This document shows positions 31,063 to 40,580 of a stretch of DNA of 64,000 nt, one piece after another. Source of the stretch: Escherichia phage slur16. Within the stretch, counting starts at the first letter, position 1, and each line of letters begins with the position of its first letter. The notes under the pieces were generated by a model that saw only the letters and a program-made list of their open reading frames with translations, ran no database searches and had not been told where the DNA came from. The stretch lies in the sequence record NC_028248.1; one strand, written 5' to 3'. A program made the position numbers and the translations under genes.

Positions 31063-31139
31063 TGGTCTCCACGGAGTGATTCGAACACTCGACCTCCTGA
31101 TCCCAAATCAGGCGCTCTACCAAGCTGAGCTACGCGGAG
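31063..31139 (-). tRNA. tRNA-Pro (anticodon UGG)
   Basis: Folded by hand: acceptor CUCCGCG/CGUGGAG with C1:G72, anticodon stem CCUGA/UCAGG, loop UUUGGGA with G37, T-loop UUCGAAU, encoded CCA. Confidence 0.85.
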
Positions 31140-31150
31140 TATTTATTATT

Positions 31151-31225
31151 TGGTGGCCCTGGGTGGAATTGAACCACCGTCTGGCGATTATGAGTCGCTT
31201 GCTTGAACCTTCCAGCTACAGGGCC
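31151..31225 (-). tRNA. tRNA-Met (anticodon CAU; elongator type, tRNA-Ile2 not excluded)
   Basis: Acceptor GGCCCUG/CAGGGCC, anticodon loop CUCAUAA, T-arm GGUGG-UUCAAUU-CCACC, encoded CCA; G1:C72 argues against initiator. Confidence 0.8.
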
Positions 31226-31226
31226 A

Positions 31227-31302
31227 TGGTGCTGATGGCAGGACTTGAACCTGCAACCTATTGATTACAAATCAATTGCACTACCAATTGTGCTACATCA
31301 GC
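31227..31302 (-). tRNA. tRNA-Thr (anticodon UGU)
   Basis: 76-nt cloverleaf: acceptor GCUGAUG/CAUCAGC, D-stem GCAC/GUGC, anticodon stem AUUGA/UCAAU with loop UUUGUAA, T-arm GCAGG-UUCAAGU-CCUGC, CCA. Confidence 0.85.
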
Positions 31303-31308
31303 AAAAAA

Positions 31309-31407
31309 GGTGCTAGGTGATGGAATCGAACCACCTATGTATTCAACGACTACCTCGTCTATTTTCAGGATTAAAAATCCTCGCCCTTGCCAAAGGGCTT
31401 ACCTAGC
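31309..31407 (-). tRNA. Aberrant tRNA-like element (99 nt; possible tRNA-Lys UUU derivative with ~26 extra nt)
   Basis: Perfect 7-bp acceptor pairing GCUAGGU/ACCUAGC, D-arm GCCC-UUUGGCAA-GGGC, T-arm GGUGG-UUCGAUU-CCAUC, 3' end ...ACC followed by UUUUUU (no encoded CCA). The anticodon position is a palindromic hairpin AGGAUU-UUU-AAUCCU (alternatively a 4-bp stem with UUUUUAA loop, anticodon UUU), and ~30 nt lie between it and the T-arm. Confidence 0.35.
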
Positions 31408-31505
31408 TCAGTATGTTGACCATGTTGCTAGTCGGCGATGACGACTGTAACATTTGATAATCCGGTTCTGCTTCCGGCTTTCGCTTAATTACAAGGTCAA
31501 CAATA

Positions 31506-31596
31506 TGGCTGAGGGTAATGGAATCGAACCATCATCGAGTCATCCTCAACGGGACGGTTTTCAAGACCGCTTGAGCACCATTGCTCCCTACCCTCA
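31506..31596 (-). tRNA. tRNA-Ser (anticodon UGA)
   Basis: Type II tRNA: acceptor UGAGGGU/ACCCUCA, anticodon arm GCGGU-CUUGAAA-ACCGU, long variable arm (UUGAG-GAUGA-CUCGA), T-arm GAUGG-UUCGAUU-CCAUU, CCA. Confidence 0.8.
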
Positions 31597-31710
31597 TTTA
31601 TAAACAATACTGATAATGACACTGATTTTCGAGCAGTTAGTGACTAGTATAAACGACGATAAATATCAATGCCATTATCTGTATGATTTATGCATTTAAA
31701 ACTATAAATT

Positions 31711-31797
31711 TGGTGGGGAGTGGTGGAGTCGAACCACCCGAGTCGTAATGACAATAGATTTACAGTCTACACCGCTACCTCTACGGGATAACTCCCC
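31711..31797 (-). tRNA. tRNA-Tyr (anticodon GUA)
   Basis: Acceptor GGGGAGU/ACUCCCC, anticodon arm GUAGA-CUGUAAA-UCUAU, long variable arm, T-arm GGUGG-UUCGACU-CCACC, CCA. Confidence 0.8.
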
Positions 31798-31801
31798 AAT
31801 T

Positions 31802-31876
31802 TGGCACCCCGTACTGGACTCGAACCAGTGTCAACGGCTTAGAAGGCCGCTGCTTTATCCACTAAGCTAACAGGGC
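31802..31876 (-). tRNA. tRNA-Arg (anticodon UCU)
   Basis: Acceptor GCCCUGU/ACGGGGU (G-U wobbles), D-stem GCUU/AAGC, anticodon arm GCGGC-CUUCUAA-GCCGU, T-arm CUGG-UUCGAGU-CCAG, CCA. Confidence 0.8.
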
Positions 31877-33756: not shown

Positions 33757-34262
33757 AGCTGCCTCCTCTTCAAGTTATAGAAAAACTCACTGTATCGCTT
33801 TGTAACGAGCTTTTCTATCAAACTGGTGCGATTGCCTTACCTGGTATAGTTTATATAGCTGTGGAGCGATTTAGGGGCCTTCTTGTCCGTTTCCACACAT
33901 AAACTTCATCCAAGCTCGCGCGGGAGACTCTCAACCGACTCCTTACGGCGCTGGCAAGCTTTCGTCGGTGGTCCACATCAGTGCTCGGCCTTTGGCCTGC
34001 GCTATCGCTTCGCTCCCACACATGTTAACAGACCTTCATGTATGCACTTCTGTTATTGTGTGCACCAAGGAGGCCCGGCATCTCGCCCCTCGTAGGCGAG
34101 TGCCAATGAAGGGCCGACACTACCTATAGTAAGTAATAAATTTAAAACATGGTACTTAGGATCTAGTATATTCTACATAAGTTAAGTATATGTATTTAGT
34201 ACCATAAGTACTAGATCTTTTATTTTTTTTATTATTTAGTTATTTTAGTTATATTCTTTATG

Positions 34263-34343
34263 TGTCCGTATCACGGACAGTTAGTGTCCGTATTACGGAC
34301 AGATGTGTCCGCGTGACGGACAGTAGTGTCCGTATCACGGACA
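34263..34343. repeat. Four tandem, phased 17-bp palindromic sites (TGTCCG-N5-CGGACA) - operator/iteron array
   Basis: tgtccgtatcacggaca (34263-34279), tgtccgtattacggaca (34285-34301), tgtccgcgtgacggaca (34306-34322), tgtccgtatcacggaca (34327-34343); centre-to-centre spacing 21-22 bp; flanked by an AT-rich tract at 34140-34260. Confidence 0.7.
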
Positions 34344-34418
34344 GTTACTAACCTCTGTTCCAGAGTGAACATAAAACATACGAATCCTTATAGTACAGAT
34401 ATTTAAGTTTTTACTGGT

Positions 34419-34769
34419 CTAACCAGTTGTTGACATTCGAATAACTTCTTCTGGTGGCAAAACTTTGGAAAATGTGCATCTTTTACCTCTCCCTTGTGTG
34501 GATATTTCAACCACTCCTGCACATTCTAAAGTTTTAACGCACGCTGCTGCTTTTGTTTTCTTTATCCCAATATCTGCTGCAATTTTCCTTGTGCTGGGCG
34601 TGAAGCGTGAATTTCCTCCAAGCTTATACCAGTTGTGCAGGTAGCAGTATACGATCTTGTCATATAAGTCAAGAACAACAACCTCACCAGTTGTGTCATT
34701 CAAAACTTTTGACATAGACAGTATTTCAAGGGGGACTTTAAGATATAGCAGCTTATCCCCATCTTTCAT
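34419..34769 (-). CDS. Hypothetical protein, possible HTH DNA-binding protein
   Basis: 116-aa ORF; segment STRKIAADIGIKKTKAAACVKTLECAGVVEI resembles a helix-turn-helix; lies ~75 bp from the palindromic repeat array. Confidence 0.3.
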   Translation of the reverse strand: MKDGDKLLYLKVPLEILSMSKVLNDTTGEVVVLDLYDKIVYCYLHNWYKLGGNSRFTPSTRKIAADIGIKKTKAAACVKTLECAGVVEISTQGRGKRCTFSKVLPPEEVIRMSTTG

Positions 34770-34816
34770 ATCTCCTGATTCTCCTTGTGTGGCAATTTTC
34801 TTTAAAATAGCAGGGA

Positions 34817-35371
34817 TTACTCCACGCTGTCAATAGCAAGACTCATTGCAATACGGTATGCCTCTTCTAATGGTAAGAGTCTCCCCCACACATCCCAACC
34901 GACATCAAACTGCCTGCCAAACAACTGCTGTGTGGTTCCGTGAGCATGACCGAACAGTTGGACCGATCCGTGAGGCTTTCTGTTCCACTTTGCAAACTGG
35001 TAATGGCTCATACAGATCAAATTCTTGTTGTGGCGAAGCTCGTAATAATCTACAACCTCATGACCGAACTCTTTCATAATTCTGACAGTCGTCCTTGTGT
35101 CATGGTTACCACGAACAAGAATAATATGTCCGTTCAACATATTTAGAACATCTGGGAGCAATTTGTTAATATTCTTATCATTAGTGCACGCAATATCTCC
35201 TAAGTGAAACACAGTGTCTGCAGGTGACACAACAGAGTTCCACTTGGTGATGATCCCCGCATTCATACTGTCAAGATTGTGATCATACTGAGATCTGTGT
35301 TTTTGACATGAGTCAAACTCCATGACCCGCTGGTGGAGAAAGTGTGTGTCGCTTGTTACAAAGTATTTCAT
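34817..35371 (-). CDS. Calcineurin-like metallophosphoesterase (putative polynucleotide 2',3'/3' phosphatase)
   Basis: Start trimmed to MKYFVTSDTHF; metallophosphoesterase motifs DTHF, HLGDI, VRGNHD, GHAH. Confidence 0.65.
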   Translation of the reverse strand: MKYFVTSDTHFLHQRVMEFDSCQKHRSQYDHNLDSMNAGIITKWNSVVSPADTVFHLGDIACTNDKNINKLLPDVLNMLNGHIILVRGNHDTRTTVRIMKEFGHEVVDYYELRHNKNLICMSHYQFAKWNRKPHGSVQLFGHAHGTTQQLFGRQFDVGWDVWGRLLPLEEAYRIAMSLAIDSVE

Positions 35372-35378
35372 ACATTCC

Positions 35379-35789
35379 TCATTTAAGTTTAATGCAGTTT
35401 TTAAGCTGGCGTTCCATACGATCCACAACCCTGTCTGGAACATCATGAATGCTTTTACTACCATGGCGGTTTTCAACCACGATTACGGTATAACTATACC
35501 TATGACTGATCGCCATGTCAATATATTCTTGCACATATTTTTCTTTTGTAAATGTATTACTTACCACGATACGGTCGTATCCCATACGCATCATATCTTC
35601 TACGTTATCTTTGCACCATTTTGCTGCAAGTGTTACTTTACTTGCATCCCAGTTGTAATTTCCATCATCGTCGTACCAGAACATGTCGTTCTCAAAATGT
35701 GGATACAGACCTTCTAAAGATAGCGCACTTGCCAGTGTTGATTTGCCAGACCCTGGTAGACCACGCACGATATATAGCATTTTAGACAT
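35379..35789 (-). CDS. P-loop polynucleotide 5'-kinase-like protein (T4 Pnk kinase-domain-like)
   Basis: Start at MSKMLYIVRG preceded by GGAGG RBS; Walker A GLPGSGKST, downstream VVSNTF, resembling the T4 Pnk kinase domain layout. Confidence 0.55.
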   Translation of the reverse strand: MSKMLYIVRGLPGSGKSTLASALSLEGLYPHFENDMFWYDDDGNYNWDASKVTLAAKWCKDNVEDMMRMGYDRIVVSNTFTKEKYVQEYIDMAISHRYSYTVIVVENRHGSKSIHDVPDRVVDRMERQLKNCIKLK

Positions 35790-35889
35790 AGTAATCCTCC
35801 GTTTTAATTTCAACGATAGTATACCTAACTGTTTTGTTAATTTCAAGTGTTGACACTAGGTTATTTGTGTGGCAGGATAGACTGACAAA

Positions 35890-36825
35890 ATGACAAATGA
35901 GGAACGTATGATGAAGTATTTTAATGCAGACGACCTAGTTGACAAAGGTCTTGTAACCAGCAGATATCACCCAGACCTTGGGTTAAAGATCTATAAATAT
36001 GCCAGAAAAGTATTCTACAACAACTTATGGCATTTGTCTCCTCGATTACTGGAGTGCCGAGGCATTGTTGTCGGTAATGAAGGAAATGTTGTGGCATGGC
36101 CCTTTACAAAAGTGTTTAACTTGGGAGAAAACTCCACCAACCTGCCTGACAATAAGCTTGTGACGGCGGTAGAGAAAAAGAACGGATTCCTTGGTGTGGT
36201 GTCATCTCATAAAGGTGAACTATTGTTCTCAACAACCGGGTCTCTTGATTCTCCATATTGTAACCTTGCAAAGGAAACCATCCAGGAGCAATGTGGTAAT
36301 TTAGATCTTATCAAGAAGGTTATGGGCAATGAAAATATGACATTCATGTTTGAAATTTGTCACCCCTCAGATCCGCATATTGTTCAGGAAGATCATGGCG
36401 CATATTTGATAGGTTGCAGATATAATGATTCTGGAATAATGCTACCAGAAGCAGCTTTAGATGGGATTGCCAAATACCTTGGTGCAAAACGTCCTCACAC
36501 TGTGCGTGAAATTCCGTTCAGTTATGCAAAAGAATTAGCTGCAGAAACAAGAGGTGAAGGGTATATGATTCGTAAGCCTTACTACCCTTATGATCTGCAG
36601 CTGAAGATTAAGTCTCCATACTATCTGGCACGGAAGGCCGTAATGAGGGGTAAAGCTTGGAAGATTTGGGATGATGATATCTTTAAACGTGTTGACGAAG
36701 AGTTTTACGGCATGGTAAACTTCATTCGTAACAACTACACAGAGGATGTATGGAACTGCCTCCTGGAGCAGGAACGCCGTGAGATACTCGATTACTATTT
36801 CCACAACGAGAACTATATGCAATGA
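35890..36825 (+). CDS. ATP-dependent RNA ligase-like nucleotidyltransferase (putative Rnl)
   Basis: Ligase motif I KxNG (VEKKNGF), motif III-like FMFEI, motif IV EGYMIRK, motif V LKIKSP; 311 aa without a DNA-ligase OB domain; a separate DNA ligase exists at 39297. Start may be the downstream ATG pair with GAGGA RBS. Confidence 0.5.
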   Translation: MTNEERMMKYFNADDLVDKGLVTSRYHPDLGLKIYKYARKVFYNNLWHLSPRLLECRGIVVGNEGNVVAWPFTKVFNLGENSTNLPDNKLVTAVEKKNGFLGVVSSHKGELLFSTTGSLDSPYCNLAKETIQEQCGNLDLIKKVMGNENMTFMFEICHPSDPHIVQEDHGAYLIGCRYNDSGIMLPEAALDGIAKYLGAKRPHTVREIPFSYAKELAAETRGEGYMIRKPYYPYDLQLKIKSPYYLARKAVMRGKAWKIWDDDIFKRVDEEFYGMVNFIRNNYTEDVWNCLLEQERREILDYYFHNENYMQ

Positions 36826-37172
36826 AGAAGTTGATTGTGTGGCTAGATGACTTGAGAGATCCGTCAAAGTACGGGCTCCAAGACGCTGTTTGGCTAAAGA
36901 ATTCCTCCGAGTTTATAGATTTTATTAACGATAATAGAAAGCTCTACAGACGCGTTTCTGAGTGGCATATGGACAACGACCTTGGAGAGGTATTCGAAGG
37001 GTACGATTGCCTATCTATGTTGGAGGAAAAATTTGTATTTGGTAAGCCTCCTGTAGTTGACAACGTGAAGATTTTCGTGCATACTTCTAACCCATCAGCG
37101 GCTCGTAAATTCATGCTTGCAGCTGACTCGTTTAAAAAGTTTGGAATAGAGATTAAACAAAACATCTACTGA
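36822..37172 (+). CDS. Hypothetical protein
   Basis: 116-aa ORF with 4-nt overlap to the upstream gene. Confidence 0.3.
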   Translation: MKKLIVWLDDLRDPSKYGLQDAVWLKNSSEFIDFINDNRKLYRRVSEWHMDNDLGEVFEGYDCLSMLEEKFVFGKPPVVDNVKIFVHTSNPSAARKFMLAADSFKKFGIEIKQNIY

Positions 37173-37180
37173 GGACACTT

Positions 37181-37942
37181 ATGCGACGACTGATTATTAT
37201 CTCCGGTGCTGGTTTGAGCGCTGAATCTGGTATTCCCACTTTCCGATCTGGTAGCACTGCAATGTGGGAGAATTTCAGCATCGATGAGGTGTGCAACATC
37301 CACACCTTTGCCAAGAACTACTATAAGGTGCATGACTTTTACAATGCACGTCGTGTAGCTTTAGGCAGTGTTGAGCCTAACCTTGCACATCTTCGGATCG
37401 CTGAGTGGTATTCCCGCTGGTCTGGTCGTGTGATCAACCTTACCACCAATGTAGATGATTTGCTGGAGCGTGCTGGTGTAAAACATGAAGATATTTTACA
37501 TGTCCACGGGTATTTGCCAGAAATAGTCTATGAGGACGATGAAGGAAGTGACGTCATTAAGGACATTGGATACTCTGAGGTAGACGCAGGAAAGTATACC
37601 TGGGTTAAGCCTAATGTGGTGTTCTTCGGAGAAGTAGCTCCGAAGTATACAGACATGTATGACCTGTTGACTTCTCTTACGAGCAATGATATGGTTATCC
37701 TTGTAGGGTGCTCCAACACAGTTATCAATTTTAACTGGGAGCTATTCCCTGCCTGCAATAAGGGAACCAAACTACTGATCGTTAATAAATACGACTCACA
37801 GCATCTAGAGGAGAATGGCATTTCACGTAGTGATATTTACCAGTATGAGGATCGTGGCATCCCAGTTTGGTTTAACGGTGCGGTTGATGCCTTCTCTGAT
37901 AAAACATTCATTGAGACTGTAGAAAACTTTATGGAACTTTAA
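37181..37942 (+). CDS. Sir2-family (sirtuin-like) NAD-dependent protein, zinc-less
   Basis: Sirtuin motifs GAGLSAESGIPTFR, TTNVDDLLERAG...HVHG, VVFFGE; no CxxC...CxxC zinc-ribbon insertion. Confidence 0.7.
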   Translation: MRRLIIISGAGLSAESGIPTFRSGSTAMWENFSIDEVCNIHTFAKNYYKVHDFYNARRVALGSVEPNLAHLRIAEWYSRWSGRVINLTTNVDDLLERAGVKHEDILHVHGYLPEIVYEDDEGSDVIKDIGYSEVDAGKYTWVKPNVVFFGEVAPKYTDMYDLLTSLTSNDMVILVGCSNTVINFNWELFPACNKGTKLLIVNKYDSQHLEENGISRSDIYQYEDRGIPVWFNGAVDAFSDKTFIETVENFMEL

Positions 37943-37955
37943 AAGGAGACCTTTA

Positions 37956-38669
37956 ATGCTGAATACTAAACTGATCGACAACCTGGAAAAACTGTCTCAG
38001 CCTGAAAACTACCTTTGGTCTGCCAACTGGGTGGAAAACTGGAACCGTGTGGCAGCTAAAGTGAAAAAATCATACACACCATTCGAATTACAGCTTAGCT
38101 TCATTGAGGAAGAGTTCAATGAGGTTTTGGAAGAGCTGGAGAAAGGTGATGGTGGAGATCACCTGCTAAAAGAGGCCTGCGATCTTCACGTTGTCACAAG
38201 TTATGCCGCTTATCTTGTTAATGATAATCACGAAAAGTGGTCAAACCTGTTTGATAATCCACGAGGTCTTAAGTTCAAGATCGGTGAGTTCTATGATACA
38301 CTGATCGCTGCGAAAAACACATCCAAGCAAAGAGCGTCAGCTTACCGTTTAGCTGAGTTGTCAACAGCTTTGCTGTTCCAGCTTCGCGGCGATGTGTGCG
38401 GGATGATGCGTAAGGTTCTCAAATCGAATGACAGCAAGTTTGCACGGGTCAACCATCTACGGTATTCACACGGTGCCAGTGCAGATATGCCTGCTGAACA
38501 ACTCATAGAGTTGGAGATTAAAGATCTTGAGCGACGCTTTGATGGTCGATATGAAGGTTTTGTTGCTAAGGAAGAATTCTACAACGGTAATAAAGTTATC
38601 ATATTCCTTGACAGTAAAGGTAAGATCATGAAGCCTTCGAGCTTCAAGGATGTAGCAGAGTATATTTAA
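37956..38669 (+). CDS. MazG-like all-alpha NTP pyrophosphohydrolase (putative)
   Basis: EEEFNEVLEELEKGDGGDHLLKEACD fits the EExxE...E..D metal-binding pattern; weak. Confidence 0.35.
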   Translation: MLNTKLIDNLEKLSQPENYLWSANWVENWNRVAAKVKKSYTPFELQLSFIEEEFNEVLEELEKGDGGDHLLKEACDLHVVTSYAAYLVNDNHEKWSNLFDNPRGLKFKIGEFYDTLIAAKNTSKQRASAYRLAELSTALLFQLRGDVCGMMRKVLKSNDSKFARVNHLRYSHGASADMPAEQLIELEIKDLERRFDGRYEGFVAKEEFYNGNKVIIFLDSKGKIMKPSSFKDVAEYI

Positions 38670-39041: not shown

Positions 39042-39297
39042 TCTTGCTAAACCTGTAGAAGCACACCAGTTTGACGGAAGCTCTTCATCAGTATCTGATC
39101 TGCAACGGTGGATTGATACAGGTGTGTTTACATCGTCACCTGTTCGGACCAGAGATCTTCGTCGCATGTGTGAGCTTGTAGAGCCGTTTGGTAACCTAGT
39201 CTTGTACCAGGGTGATTGGCTTGTTGATTTTATGGGGGACTGGTTGGTAATGAGTAAAGAAGAGATGTTTAAAATTTTTAAGGAAGAGGCCGAGTAA
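39028..39297 (+). CDS. Hypothetical protein
   Basis: 89-aa ORF. Confidence 0.3.
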   Translation: MPLFNLAKPVEAHQFDGSSSSVSDLQRWIDTGVFTSSPVRTRDLRRMCELVEPFGNLVLYQGDWLVDFMGDWLVMSKEEMFKIFKEEAE

Positions 39298-40580
39298 TGC
39301 ATCAAATCAAAACAACACTGTACGCACTGAACAAAGATGGCAGCTACCAACAGTGGAAAGTATTCACGGATGGTGATAAGGTTATCGTAGAGTTTGGCAA
39401 GCTTGATGGTAAACTGCAATACAAAGAGACGATCTGCACACCTAAGAACGTGGGTCGCGCCAATGAAACTACAGCTGAGCAACAGGCCGAGCTGGAAGCG
39501 ATCAGTAAGTGGGAAAAACAGGTCCGACTCGGGTACGTGGAGAGTATGGAAGATTGTGAGCAAGGTGTTGATCTTTTACCCATGTTGGTGCATGACTACC
39601 TGAAGCGTGGCAAGGCACTTAAATTACCTTGCTGGATCTTGCGTAAGTTAGATGGCCTTCGTCTACTTGTTGTTTTCCAGAATGGTGAGCCTAAATTTAT
39701 TTCCCGTGGTAATAAGTCCTACCCTATTCAAGGAAAGCTTCTGGAGCAACTTCGCTCTTTCCACCTAACCACCGGGATTAAACAGCTCGACGGAGAGCTC
39801 TATATTCATGGTCTACCTCTGCAGAAAATAGTGTCTCTTGCTAAACGGTGGCGCACACAGGAAGAAATTCAGGCCGAGATCGATAAAGACTACAAGGCAG
39901 ATAAAAAACGCCGTCAGGCTGCGATTAAAGCAGGTTTAGCAACATACAAAAACTTCAACAAGGTGGACATTCCTGTTGATGTTGAGCCTGTTCGTGATGA
40001 TTTGCGTTACGGAGGGTACTGCAGCTACGACTTAGAGTATCATATTTTCGATATTCCTAGCGATAAGGTGTGGTGGGATCCTGAAACAGAGTCTGGTCGC
40101 TGTAAGGATCTTATGGAGGCAAACGGTGCTATTACTTCTTTGATGCTTGATCATATTAAGGTTGTTGATGCAGAGCTTGCATATACGGTTGATCGGTGCG
40201 AAGAGTCTGTTGGTATATTTATGTCTGAAGGATATGAAGGTACCATTATGCGTAACTTCTGTGGTAAATATGAGTATGGTCAGCGAACATCTGAAGCATT
40301 GAAATGGAAAAAGTTCAACGACGCAGAGGTGAAAGTTATTGACGTTGAGAAAGATAAGAATGATGAAGGTGTTCTTATCTGTGTTGACAAGGAAGGTGTT
40401 GTTGTTAAAATGAAGATGAAAGGCACGCACGAGGAGCGTAGCTATGACAGGATGCAGGAAATGATCGGCAAGTTTGTCACCTTCAAATATCAAGCAAGGA
40501 CAGAAGACAACAACTACCAATTCCCTGTCGGTATCTGCGTCCGAAATGTTAACCCAGATACTTGGGAGGTTCTGGAATGA
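39297..40580 (+). CDS. ATP-dependent DNA ligase
   Basis: Motif I KLDGLR (adenylation lysine), motif IV EGTIMR, motif V ALKWKKF; 427 aa. Confidence 0.75.
   Translation: MHQIKTTLYALNKDGSYQQWKVFTDGDKVIVEFGKLDGKLQYKETICTPKNVGRANETTAEQQAELEAISKWEKQVRLGYVESMEDCEQGVDLLPMLVHDYLKRGKALKLPCWILRKLDGLRLLVVFQNGEPKFISRGNKSYPIQGKLLEQLRSFHLTTGIKQLDGELYIHGLPLQKIVSLAKRWRTQEEIQAEIDKDYKADKKRRQAAIKAGLATYKNFNKVDIPVDVEPVRDDLRYGGYCSYDLEYHIFDIPSDKVWWDPETESGRCKDLMEANGAITSLMLDHIKVVDAELAYTVDRCEESVGIFMSEGYEGTIMRNFCGKYEYGQRTSEALKWKKFNDAEVKVIDVEKDKNDEGVLICVDKEGVVVKMKMKGTHEERSYDRMQEMIGKFVTFKYQARTEDNNYQFPVGICVRNVNPDTWEVLE

Follow-up and report, generated by a model that had tools for sequence, protein, structure and literature searches.

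Nucleases that cleave tRNA make up one of the major branches of bacterial immunity against phages; examples are PrrC, RloC, PARIS and retron/PtuAB-type nucleases. To our knowledge, the only well-studied counter-measure by which a phage repairs tRNA is that of T4, in which Pnkp (PseT) and Rnl1 (gp63) counter the PrrC anticodon nuclease through 5'-phosphorylation, removal of 2',3'-phosphates and sealing. A T4-Pnk-like kinase, a metallophosphoesterase (MPE) and an ATP-dependent ligase also come together in the bacterial Pnkp/Hen1 systems (Clostridium thermocellum Pnkp; Capnocytophaga Pnkp1–Rnl–Hen1), and fungi and plants use Trl1/AtRNL (LIG–KIN–CPD) with Tpt1. For phages, Iyer, Burroughs, Anantharaman and Aravind (2022) made phage V5, with Proteus phage Mydo, the prototype of 'type 2', a predicted RNA-repair neighbourhood centred on a sirtuin that was proposed to remove 2'-phosphates as an analogue of KptA/Tpt1 (PMC9503650). 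Here we analyse a locus of this kind in a 64,000-nucleotide stretch of Escherichia phage slur16 (NC_028248.1; hereafter the window), where an MPE, a small P-loop kinase and an RNA ligase are encoded around one intergenic region (Table 1).

An earlier reading of the letters without database searches (the sequence-only reading) had proposed that these three genes form an RNA end-healing and sealing cassette that repairs tRNAs cut by host nucleases. All three open reading frames are present where it had placed them, and homology, predicted fold and conserved linkage speak for the proposal. We consider it probable that the region encodes a phage RNA end-healing and sealing system, a pathway like that of T4 Pnkp and Rnl1 built from separately encoded enzymes, and its role would most plausibly be the repair of host-cut tRNAs. 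The evidence consists of family membership, predicted folds, conservation of catalytic residues, and gene linkage and fusion. The cassette is not novel: it is already annotated in GenBank and has been interpreted in print as predicted RNA repair. The value of the present analysis lies in confirmation, in corrected details and in a sharper definition of the conserved core, MPE–ligase–kinase.

Predicted ligase, kinase and metallophosphoesterase

The ligase matches Pfam RNA_lig_T4_1 (E 6.3e-15, above the gathering score) and a PHROGs family (E 7.7e-67). Single-sequence phmmer searches of the PDB with the ligase or with the kinase returned nothing useful, and family profiles were required; with its profile, the ligase had T4 Rnl1 as sole match (E 1.9e-14). 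The translation contains KKNG, EGYMIRK and LKIK, motifs that had been picked out from the sequence (the first as KxNG). Across 34 homologues K90-x-N92-G93, F148-E149, E217-G218 and K233-x-K235 (motifs I (KxxG), III, IV and V) are invariant, and in the profile alignment these residues fall on T4 K99/G102, E159, E227/G228 and K240/K242. R51, K68 and F70, likewise invariant, align with R54, K75 and F77 in the Rnl1-type N-terminal sub-domain that contacts ATP, and the roles of T4 Rnl1 Arg54, Lys75 and Phe76/77 equivalents in this contact have been described (PMC6379707). Because the nucleotidyl-transfer residues are invariant across homologues that are only 37–50% identical, we argue for selection on catalysis. 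By fold, T4 Rnl1 is the closest structure, nearer than Rnl2–5, DNA ligases and capping enzymes (comparison figures: Rnl3 17.1, Rnl5 14.6, Rnl2 13.8, DNA ligases at most 11.8, capping enzymes at most 9.4). A DNA ligase or a capping enzyme, either of which would have undone the sequence-only reading, was rejected for the 305-aa protein on fold and profile evidence, which point to Rnl1. As had been stated, the ligase is also distinct from the DNA ligase further downstream, which has a DNA_ligase_A_M and an OB domain. Of 50,697 phage records, 678 carry a ligase of the same clade as the 305-aa protein, including phages of Escherichia, Pseudomonas, Vibrio, Klebsiella, Acinetobacter and Streptomyces.

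The kinase matches Pfam AAA_33 (E 3.4e-9) and a PHROGs family (E 4.5e-57). Its P-loop, GLPGSGKST as read from the sequence, is invariant in the family, as is D35, the equivalent of the T4 general base Asp35, which in the profile alignment also falls on the RDD motif of Pnkp1. The best full-length matches of the family profile in the PDB were PSTK, Pnkp1, T4 Pnk and the Clostridium Pnkp kinase, and the closest structure by fold is the kinase domain of T4 Pnk. A deoxynucleoside monophosphate kinase, the identity that had been named as fatal to the proposal, was rejected on the fold ranking and on fusion to the ligase; the protein is closest to polynucleotide and tRNA kinases, not to nucleoside monophosphate kinases. 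It is a single domain without a fused C-terminal HAD (DxDxT) 3'-phosphatase, and the public label '3'-phosphatase, 5'-polynucleotide kinase' is therefore an over-annotation. GenBank labels for the kinase are inconsistent (LR694165, MT884008 and others), ranging from this one to 'ATPase AAA' and 'nucleoside triphosphate hydrolase'.

The MPE matches Pfam Metallophos (E 5e-6; 27.5 bits against a cut-off of 21.5), Metallophos_2 and phrog_547 (E 5.6e-52). The profile searches that had been suggested as a check led to T4 Rnl1 for the ligase, to PSTK and Pnk-type kinases for the kinase and to Metallophos for the MPE. The translation contains GNHD, as had been noted, and GHAHG, whereas the literal GDxxD that had been listed with it is absent, the actual sequence being HLGDIACTND. 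The full signature D-x-H / GD / GNH / H / GHxH is nevertheless there and the ligands of two metals are conserved: among 32 homologues D8 is nearly invariant and H10, D59, N89/H90, H123 and H142/H144 are invariant. Among proteins of solved structure the MPE is closest to Aquifex aq_1665 (1xm7; E 7e-11 with the single sequence, 1.1e-22 with the family profile), with weak matches to GpdQ-type and YfcE-type enzymes next, and by sequence it belongs to an aq_1665-like clade. The top 120 homologues include no fusion proteins; all are stand-alone and ~180–210 aa long. Hydrolysis of 2',3'-cyclic and 3'-phosphates is known from other MPE enzymes, Clostridium Pnkp and CpdB among them, and gene context suggests that the enzyme studied here would be the one that removes 2',3'-phosphates.

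Linkage of the three genes in distant phages

We scanned IMG/VR and, in all 85 distant loci, which have 75 distinct ligase sequences 37–49% identical to the ligase of the window, detected partners within 5 kb of the ligase by tblastn with the window's proteins. A kinase or an MPE lies near the ligase in 79 of these loci (kinase 67, MPE 68, both 56). All partner genes share the ligase's strand, and the gap between ligase and kinase has a median of 73 bp. This association of kinase, MPE and ligase is far beyond chance. Gene orders were MPE>Rnl>Kin in 28 loci, Kin>Rnl>MPE in 12 and Rnl>Kin>MPE in three; since order varies while linkage is kept, we argue that it is selection, and not common descent of a single arrangement, that holds the genes together. 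Five contigs with ligases 42–48% identical to the window's encode MPE, ligase and AAA_33 kinase co-directionally, four of them as tightly packed neighbours, and a reciprocal start from MPE homologues found an AAA_33 kinase and an RNA_lig_T4_1 ligase nearby in two of three long contigs. The split MPE–ligase–kinase module is much more widespread than the T4 form.

Kinase and ligase are also found as one protein. In 11 metagenomic viral loci (L046–L050, L052, L053, L055, L057–L059; for example L049:4563-5825) a single open reading frame of ~420 aa has the kinase fused to the N terminus of the ligase, and phrog_8238, a profile of 737 positions, matches the kinase at its N terminus and the ligase at its C terminus. 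None of the 11 fusion loci has a recognisable MPE or other phosphoesterase within 5 kb. A Pfam search of the L049 open reading frames for a non-orthologous phosphoesterase by the fusion gene found none, only domains of unknown function and a DNA ligase.

The divergent arrangement that the sequence-only reading had described is present in the window and is peculiar to rV5-like phages, the usual form being a co-directional MPE>Rnl>kinase. As the kinase–MPE pair is inverted relative to the ligase in this lineage only, the arrangement reflects a local rearrangement at the point where the genome switches strand.

Two side observations concern these loci. RNA-ligase and DNA-ligase genes are often co-located, in a third of the distant loci. 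In L004, a 3.5-kb NCBI contig, two inverted ligase–kinase copies flank a central 157-aa open reading frame; they are probably a palindromic assembly artefact.

cREC, Sir2 and MazG-like proteins in the ligase operon

The cassette had been drawn as ending with the ligase (34817-36825). Its three genes do lie there, and the operon continues with three members that had been missed: a cREC (cyclic-phosphate-processing receiver-like) protein, a Sir2-family protein and a MazG-like protein. The four genes form one tight operon. The ligase stop and the cREC start overlap by 4 nt (ATGA), an arrangement by which we take cREC to be translationally coupled to the ligase; an 8-nt gap separates cREC from Sir2, and a 13-nt gap Sir2 from the MazG-like gene.

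cREC scores 56.5 bits against Pfam PF20274 (cREC_REC; cut-off 27). Its invariant residues are D9/D10, DND at 51–53, H87/S89/N90/P91 (an HTSNP motif) and K96, a pattern reminiscent of the active site (DD / D / T / K) in receiver domains such as CheY. It thus has the family score, the acidic pair with a further Asp, and the link to an RNA ligase and an NAD+ system that mark the family. Its profile had no credible match in the PDB even at E ≤ 10. Iyer et al. (2021) predicted that cREC is an enzyme tied to RNA ligases that processes 2',3'-cyclic phosphate or cyclic ADP-ribose (PMC7824862). In six phages of ~146 kb, which have the order MPE ... Rnl>cREC>Kin>Sir2>DNA ligase, cREC stands between ligase and kinase and Sir2 directly after the kinase.

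The Sir2 protein matches Pfam SIR2 (E 3e-27) and phrog_2162 (E 9e-110). It keeps the GAGxS and HG motifs and has no Cys between HVHG and FFGE, a site at which sirtuins normally carry a CxxC...CxxC zinc ribbon. A protein without these cysteines agrees with the 'distinct sirtuin clade' that Iyer et al. described in 2022. The MazG-like protein matches phrog_671 (E 5.1e-22) and no Pfam family, and MazG was counted in the V5 neighbourhood by the same authors (PMC9503650).

Among the 85 distant loci, cREC occurs in 10, Sir2 in nine and the MazG-like protein in 10, the same set as cREC/Sir2. The MPE–ligase–kinase core occurs without cREC or Sir2 in ~88% of them, which speaks for the MPE as the phosphoesterase that would do the healing in general; cREC, Sir2 and MazG would then be an extension specific to one lineage.

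Proposed pathway and alternative explanations

In the pathway that we favour, the small T4-Pnk-fold kinase would phosphorylate the 5'-OH, and the stand-alone MPE would convert a cyclic or 3'-phosphate to a 3'-OH, standing in for the HAD-type phosphatase domain of T4 Pnkp. The Rnl1-family ligase would adenylylate itself at Lys90 (in KKNG), transfer the AMP to the 5'-phosphate and seal the break. The ligase operon of the rV5/phi92 group would in addition have gained cREC, the cysteine-less Sir2 and the MazG-like protein, which probably deal with extra end chemistries (2'-phosphate, ADP-ribose by-products) or with NAD+-linked conflicts. We infer all of these enzymatic activities, as well as tRNA as the substrate, the way in which MPE and cREC would share the work, and the identity of the defence systems countered.

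Several observations weigh against this pathway. The ligase reaches 39.3 bits against NCBIfam TIGR02308, the T4 RnlA equivalog, whose cut-off is 242, and on sequence criteria it is a member of the broad Pfam family and not an RnlA orthologue. After motif V it has ~65 helical residues, about half of the C-domain of T4 Rnl1, which spans ~120 aa. In T4 that C-domain is responsible for tRNA specificity (PMC6379707), so that for the shorter protein tRNA specificity is putative. The kinase lacks an equivalent of T4 Pnk Arg38, having Trp at this position (Phe in the family consensus), and its lid is an invariant ENRHG with a single Arg, not RxxxR. In 2002, Wang, Lima and Shuman reportedly identified Arg38 as acceptor-binding in T4 Pnk and R122/R126 as its lid Arg pair; acceptor binding by the phage kinase must therefore differ from that of T4 Pnk. 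Iyer et al. 2022 name this protein merely a 'nucleotide kinase' (PMC9503650). As for the MPE, its closest solved relative, aq_1665, is functionally uncharacterised, its weak sub-threshold NCBIfam matches include the nuclease PdeM and also YfcE, and it has no sequence match to Clostridium Pnkp or the lambda-phosphatase clade at E ≤ 0.1. Searches with the kinase family and with the MPE family each returned at least ~7,700 hits compared with 555 for the ligase, so that both families also occur in other contexts. Literature searches found no biochemical or genetic data on any component, and no experimental study of MPE, Pnk and RNA ligase in phages or of the rV5 RNA ligase and polynucleotide kinase.

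The interpretation published for phage V5 assigns the central steps differently (PMC9503650). It describes an NAD+-dependent repair, analogous to that of fungal and plant Trl1 with Tpt1, in which cREC would open the cyclic 2',3'-phosphate so as to leave a 2'-phosphate, the kinase would phosphorylate the 5'-OH, and sealing by the ligase would be followed by a step like that of KptA/Tpt1, with Sir2 transferring ADP-ribosyl from NAD+ to strip the 2'-phosphate; by-products would be cleared by MazG and the MPE, making the MPE an accessory and not the main healing enzyme. The tight operon of ligase, cREC, Sir2 and MazG-like genes is what this route would lead one to expect, as are the six related loci with cREC between ligase and kinase and Sir2 right after the kinase. 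cREC retains receiver-type acidic, Ser/Thr and Lys residues, the loss of zinc-ribbon cysteines from Sir2 fits a non-canonical role, and ligase motif I, KxNG, is the same as in Trl1. The distribution of the genes points the other way: with cREC in 10 and Sir2 in nine distant loci compared with 68 for the MPE and 67 for the kinase, the conserved core is MPE–ligase–kinase, working without cREC and Sir2 in most phages. In addition, the ligase profile reaches T4 Rnl1 and not Trl1, even at E ≤ 10, and both cREC and the Sir2 clade are experimentally uncharacterised (PMC9503650). We regard this route as possible, either as a compatible second branch or as a rival main route, though rather unlikely.

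A related suggestion concerns the sealing step itself. The proposed 2'-phosphate site of Chaetomium Trl1-LIG comprises the Asn of motif I, a His that follows the Glu of motif III at a distance of nine residues, and an RxxR whose arginines stand nine and 12 residues beyond motif V (PMC6379707). In the phage ligase clade Asn92 (motif I), His157 (eight after Glu149) and Lys243 and Arg247 (eight and 12 after Lys235) are all invariant. At the equivalent positions T4 Rnl1 carries Asp, Ile and His/Ser. On this motif spacing, the clade might be a 2'-phosphate-dependent sealing enzyme like Trl1/AtRNL in a eukaryote-style route, in which cREC or the MPE may generate a 2'-phosphate/3'-OH end and Sir2, though not homologous to Tpt1, may take its place in removing the 2'-phosphate from the junction with NAD+. 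We find this doubtful: the four residues are clade-wide whereas Sir2 and cREC are present in about one-ninth of the loci, and a search for Trl1 with the ligase profile found none at E ≤ 10. Two further readings dispense with RNA repair altogether. The kinase and MPE could mend nicks with 5'-OH and 3'-phosphate ends in DNA for the nearby DNA ligase, the RNA ligase being incidental; T4 Pnkp acts on DNA ends too, and 28 of the 85 distant loci encode a homologue of the window's own DNA ligase no more than 5 kb away from the cassette. That this homologue is absent from the flanks of the other 57, and that both the 73-bp median adjacency and the 11 in-frame fusions involve an Rnl1-type RNA ligase and not a DNA ligase, makes such conditioning of DNA ends highly improbable. 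The remaining possibility is that there is no repair pathway, the ligase being a tail-fibre attachment factor like T4 gp63, the kinase a nucleotide or NAD-salvage kinase, and their proximity a matter of early-gene clustering. The public label 'RNA ligase 1 and tail attachment protein', the name 'nucleotide kinase' in Iyer et al. (PMC9503650) and the missing Arg38 equivalent would all suit it. It is barely credible in the face of the nucleotidyl-transfer residues kept by every one of the 37–50% identical ligase homologues, the existence of kinase–ligase fusions, a kinase fold closest to polynucleotide kinases and the position of the cassette outside the tail module.

Gene boundaries and neighbouring genes

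The mechanically called open reading frames are overlong, and the likely boundaries of the three genes in Table 1 agree with public annotations. For the ligase, a mechanical start at 35890 had given the 311 aa of the earlier description; the identification as a ligase-fold protein, Rnl1-like, stands, and its likely start gives the length in the table. In public records the MPE is labelled 'phosphoesterase', the kinase 'polynucleotide kinase' or '3'-phosphatase, 5'-polynucleotide kinase', and the ligase 'RNA ligase' or 'RNA ligase 1 and tail attachment protein'.

Table 1. Positions of the cassette genes and neighbouring features in the window
Feature	Position	Strand	Basis
Metallophosphoesterase (MPE), stand-alone, binuclear, 184 aa; candidate 2',3'-cyclic-phosphate / 3'-phosphate end-healing enzyme	34817-35371	-	Pfam, PHROGs, motifs
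P-loop kinase, T4 Pnk kinase-domain fold, 136 aa; candidate RNA 5'-OH kinase	35379-35789	-	Pfam, PHROGs
Divergent intergenic region, 118 bp, between kinase–MPE unit and ligase–cREC–Sir2 unit	35790-35907	.	Sequence read
Rnl1-family ATP-dependent RNA ligase (predicted), 305 aa	35908-36825	+	Pfam, PHROGs, profile against PDB
cREC (cyclic-phosphate-processing receiver-like) protein, 116 aa	36822-37172	+	Pfam PF20274
Sir2-family protein, 253 aa, without zinc-ribbon cysteines; possible NAD+-dependent partner	37181-37942	+	Pfam SIR2, phrog_2162
MazG-like nucleotide pyrophosphohydrolase, 237 aa; possible accessory member	37956-38669	+	phrog_671
Seven tRNA genes; context, not a conserved part of the cassette	31063-31876	-	ARAGORN, Rfam
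DNA ligase, ordinary ATP-dependent, separate gene	39297-40580	.	Pfam DNA_ligase_A_M and OB domain

The intergenic region has strong Shine–Dalgarno sites for both flanking genes, GGAGG six bases upstream of the kinase ATG and GAGGA upstream of the ligase ATG. A promoter and terminator scan of this region gave consensus-level matches only and is not decisive: it showed a sigma-70-like site directed toward the kinase (minus strand, 35846..35818, TTGAAA-17-TATACT) and on the plus strand a perfect TTGACA at 35850-35855 without a good -10 partner.

In the window, minus-strand tail and head genes are followed by the tRNA cluster and small genes and then by a strand switch at ~35.85 kb, downstream of which lie plus-strand genes of nucleotide and DNA metabolism. 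GC skew, negative before ~36 kb and positive after it, changes sign at ~35800-36000, coinciding with the kinase/ligase intergenic region and with the point at which coding changes strand across the genome. A small helix-turn-helix protein at 34419-34769, which matches a PHROG annotated 'replication initiation protein', adjoins this region; together with the skew it suggests that a replication origin may be nearby. Next to it, ~660 bp at 33757-34418 contain no annotated gene in rV5 records, only short GTG/TTG open reading frames, and match no Rfam family at E ≤ 0.01.

The cassette had also been described as lying next to a tRNA operon. A cluster is indeed found 2.9 kb away, on the same strand as kinase and MPE, with tRNAs for Pro, Met/Ile-CAU, Thr, Ser, Tyr and Arg-UCU and an atypical Lys-UUU, as called by ARAGORN and Rfam. 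A tRNA lies within 5 kb in just 10 of 60 distant loci, so adjacency is not a conserved feature of the cassette. The atypical tRNA (31309-31407, minus strand) has the anticodon loop UUUUUAA with anticodon UUU (Lys), a variable region of ~27 nt with an extra 5-bp stem–loop, and a minimum free energy of -34.2 kcal/mol (z -3.7); ARAGORN misreads it as '???/atcc', Rfam scores it at 35.5 bits and the BASEL record gives tRNA-Lys. As tRNA-Lys(UUU) is a classic target of anticodon nucleases, this gene could be a nuclease-evading replacement.

A 2.8-kb query (34400-37200) matched Escherichia phage slur12 at 100% identity, rV5 isolates at 99.9% and more than 100 rV5-like phages (Vequintavirus) at 97–99.9%. 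The same query matched 18 records named 'Campylobacter phage' (host Campylobacter jejuni), one of them listed as 97% identical, which suggests mis-assigned hosts or contamination of the deposits. The main text of the HIDEN-SEQ preprint on Vequintavirus Bas54 reports nothing on the cassette genes.

Comparison with known systems

The nearest described counterpart is the type 2 neighbourhood, a near-identical phage locus with a T4-like tRNA ligase, cREC, kinase, MazG, Sir2 and a calcineurin-like phosphoesterase; all six genes are found within 34817-38669. The two descriptions differ in what they place at the centre. That of Iyer et al. is Sir2-centred and treats the MPE as 'occasional', whereas from the ligase outward the MPE and the kinase are regular partners and cREC and Sir2 are lineage-specific additions.

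Trl1/AtRNL shares motif I KxNG with the phage ligase, and cREC and Sir2 have been proposed as analogues of CPD and Tpt1 (PMC9503650). They differ in that the phage ligase has no Trl1 (Rnl6) C-domain, the phage kinase resembles T4 Pnk, the counterpart of CPD is not of the 2H type, and no sequence match to Trl1 appears even at E ≤ 10.

The sequence-only reading had called the configuration bacterial Pnkp-like. This holds only as a functional analogy, though the kinase profile does match the kinase domains of Pnkp1 and Clostridium Pnkp. Membership in the bacterial family would entail a kinase, a lambda-phosphatase-like MPE and an Rnl4-type ligase in one polypeptide with a Hen1 partner. Here they are three separate proteins, the MPE is aq_1665-like and has no match to the Pnkp phosphatase, and no Hen1 methyltransferase is annotated within the window.

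With T4 the locus shares the three predicted steps of 5'-phosphorylation, 2',3'-phosphate removal and Rnl1-type sealing. T4 Rnl1 is both the closest structure and the sole PDB sequence relative of the ligase, and the kinase domain of T4 Pnk is the closest structure to the kinase. By contrast with T4, the kinase is a stand-alone protein of 136 aa that lacks both the HAD phosphatase and the Arg38 equivalent, and a binuclear metallophosphoesterase unrelated to that phosphatase presumably fills its role. In the ligase, motif I reads KxNG where T4 has KEDG, T4 Lys119 is replaced by Thr, and the helical region at the C terminus is about half as large as in T4 Rnl1.

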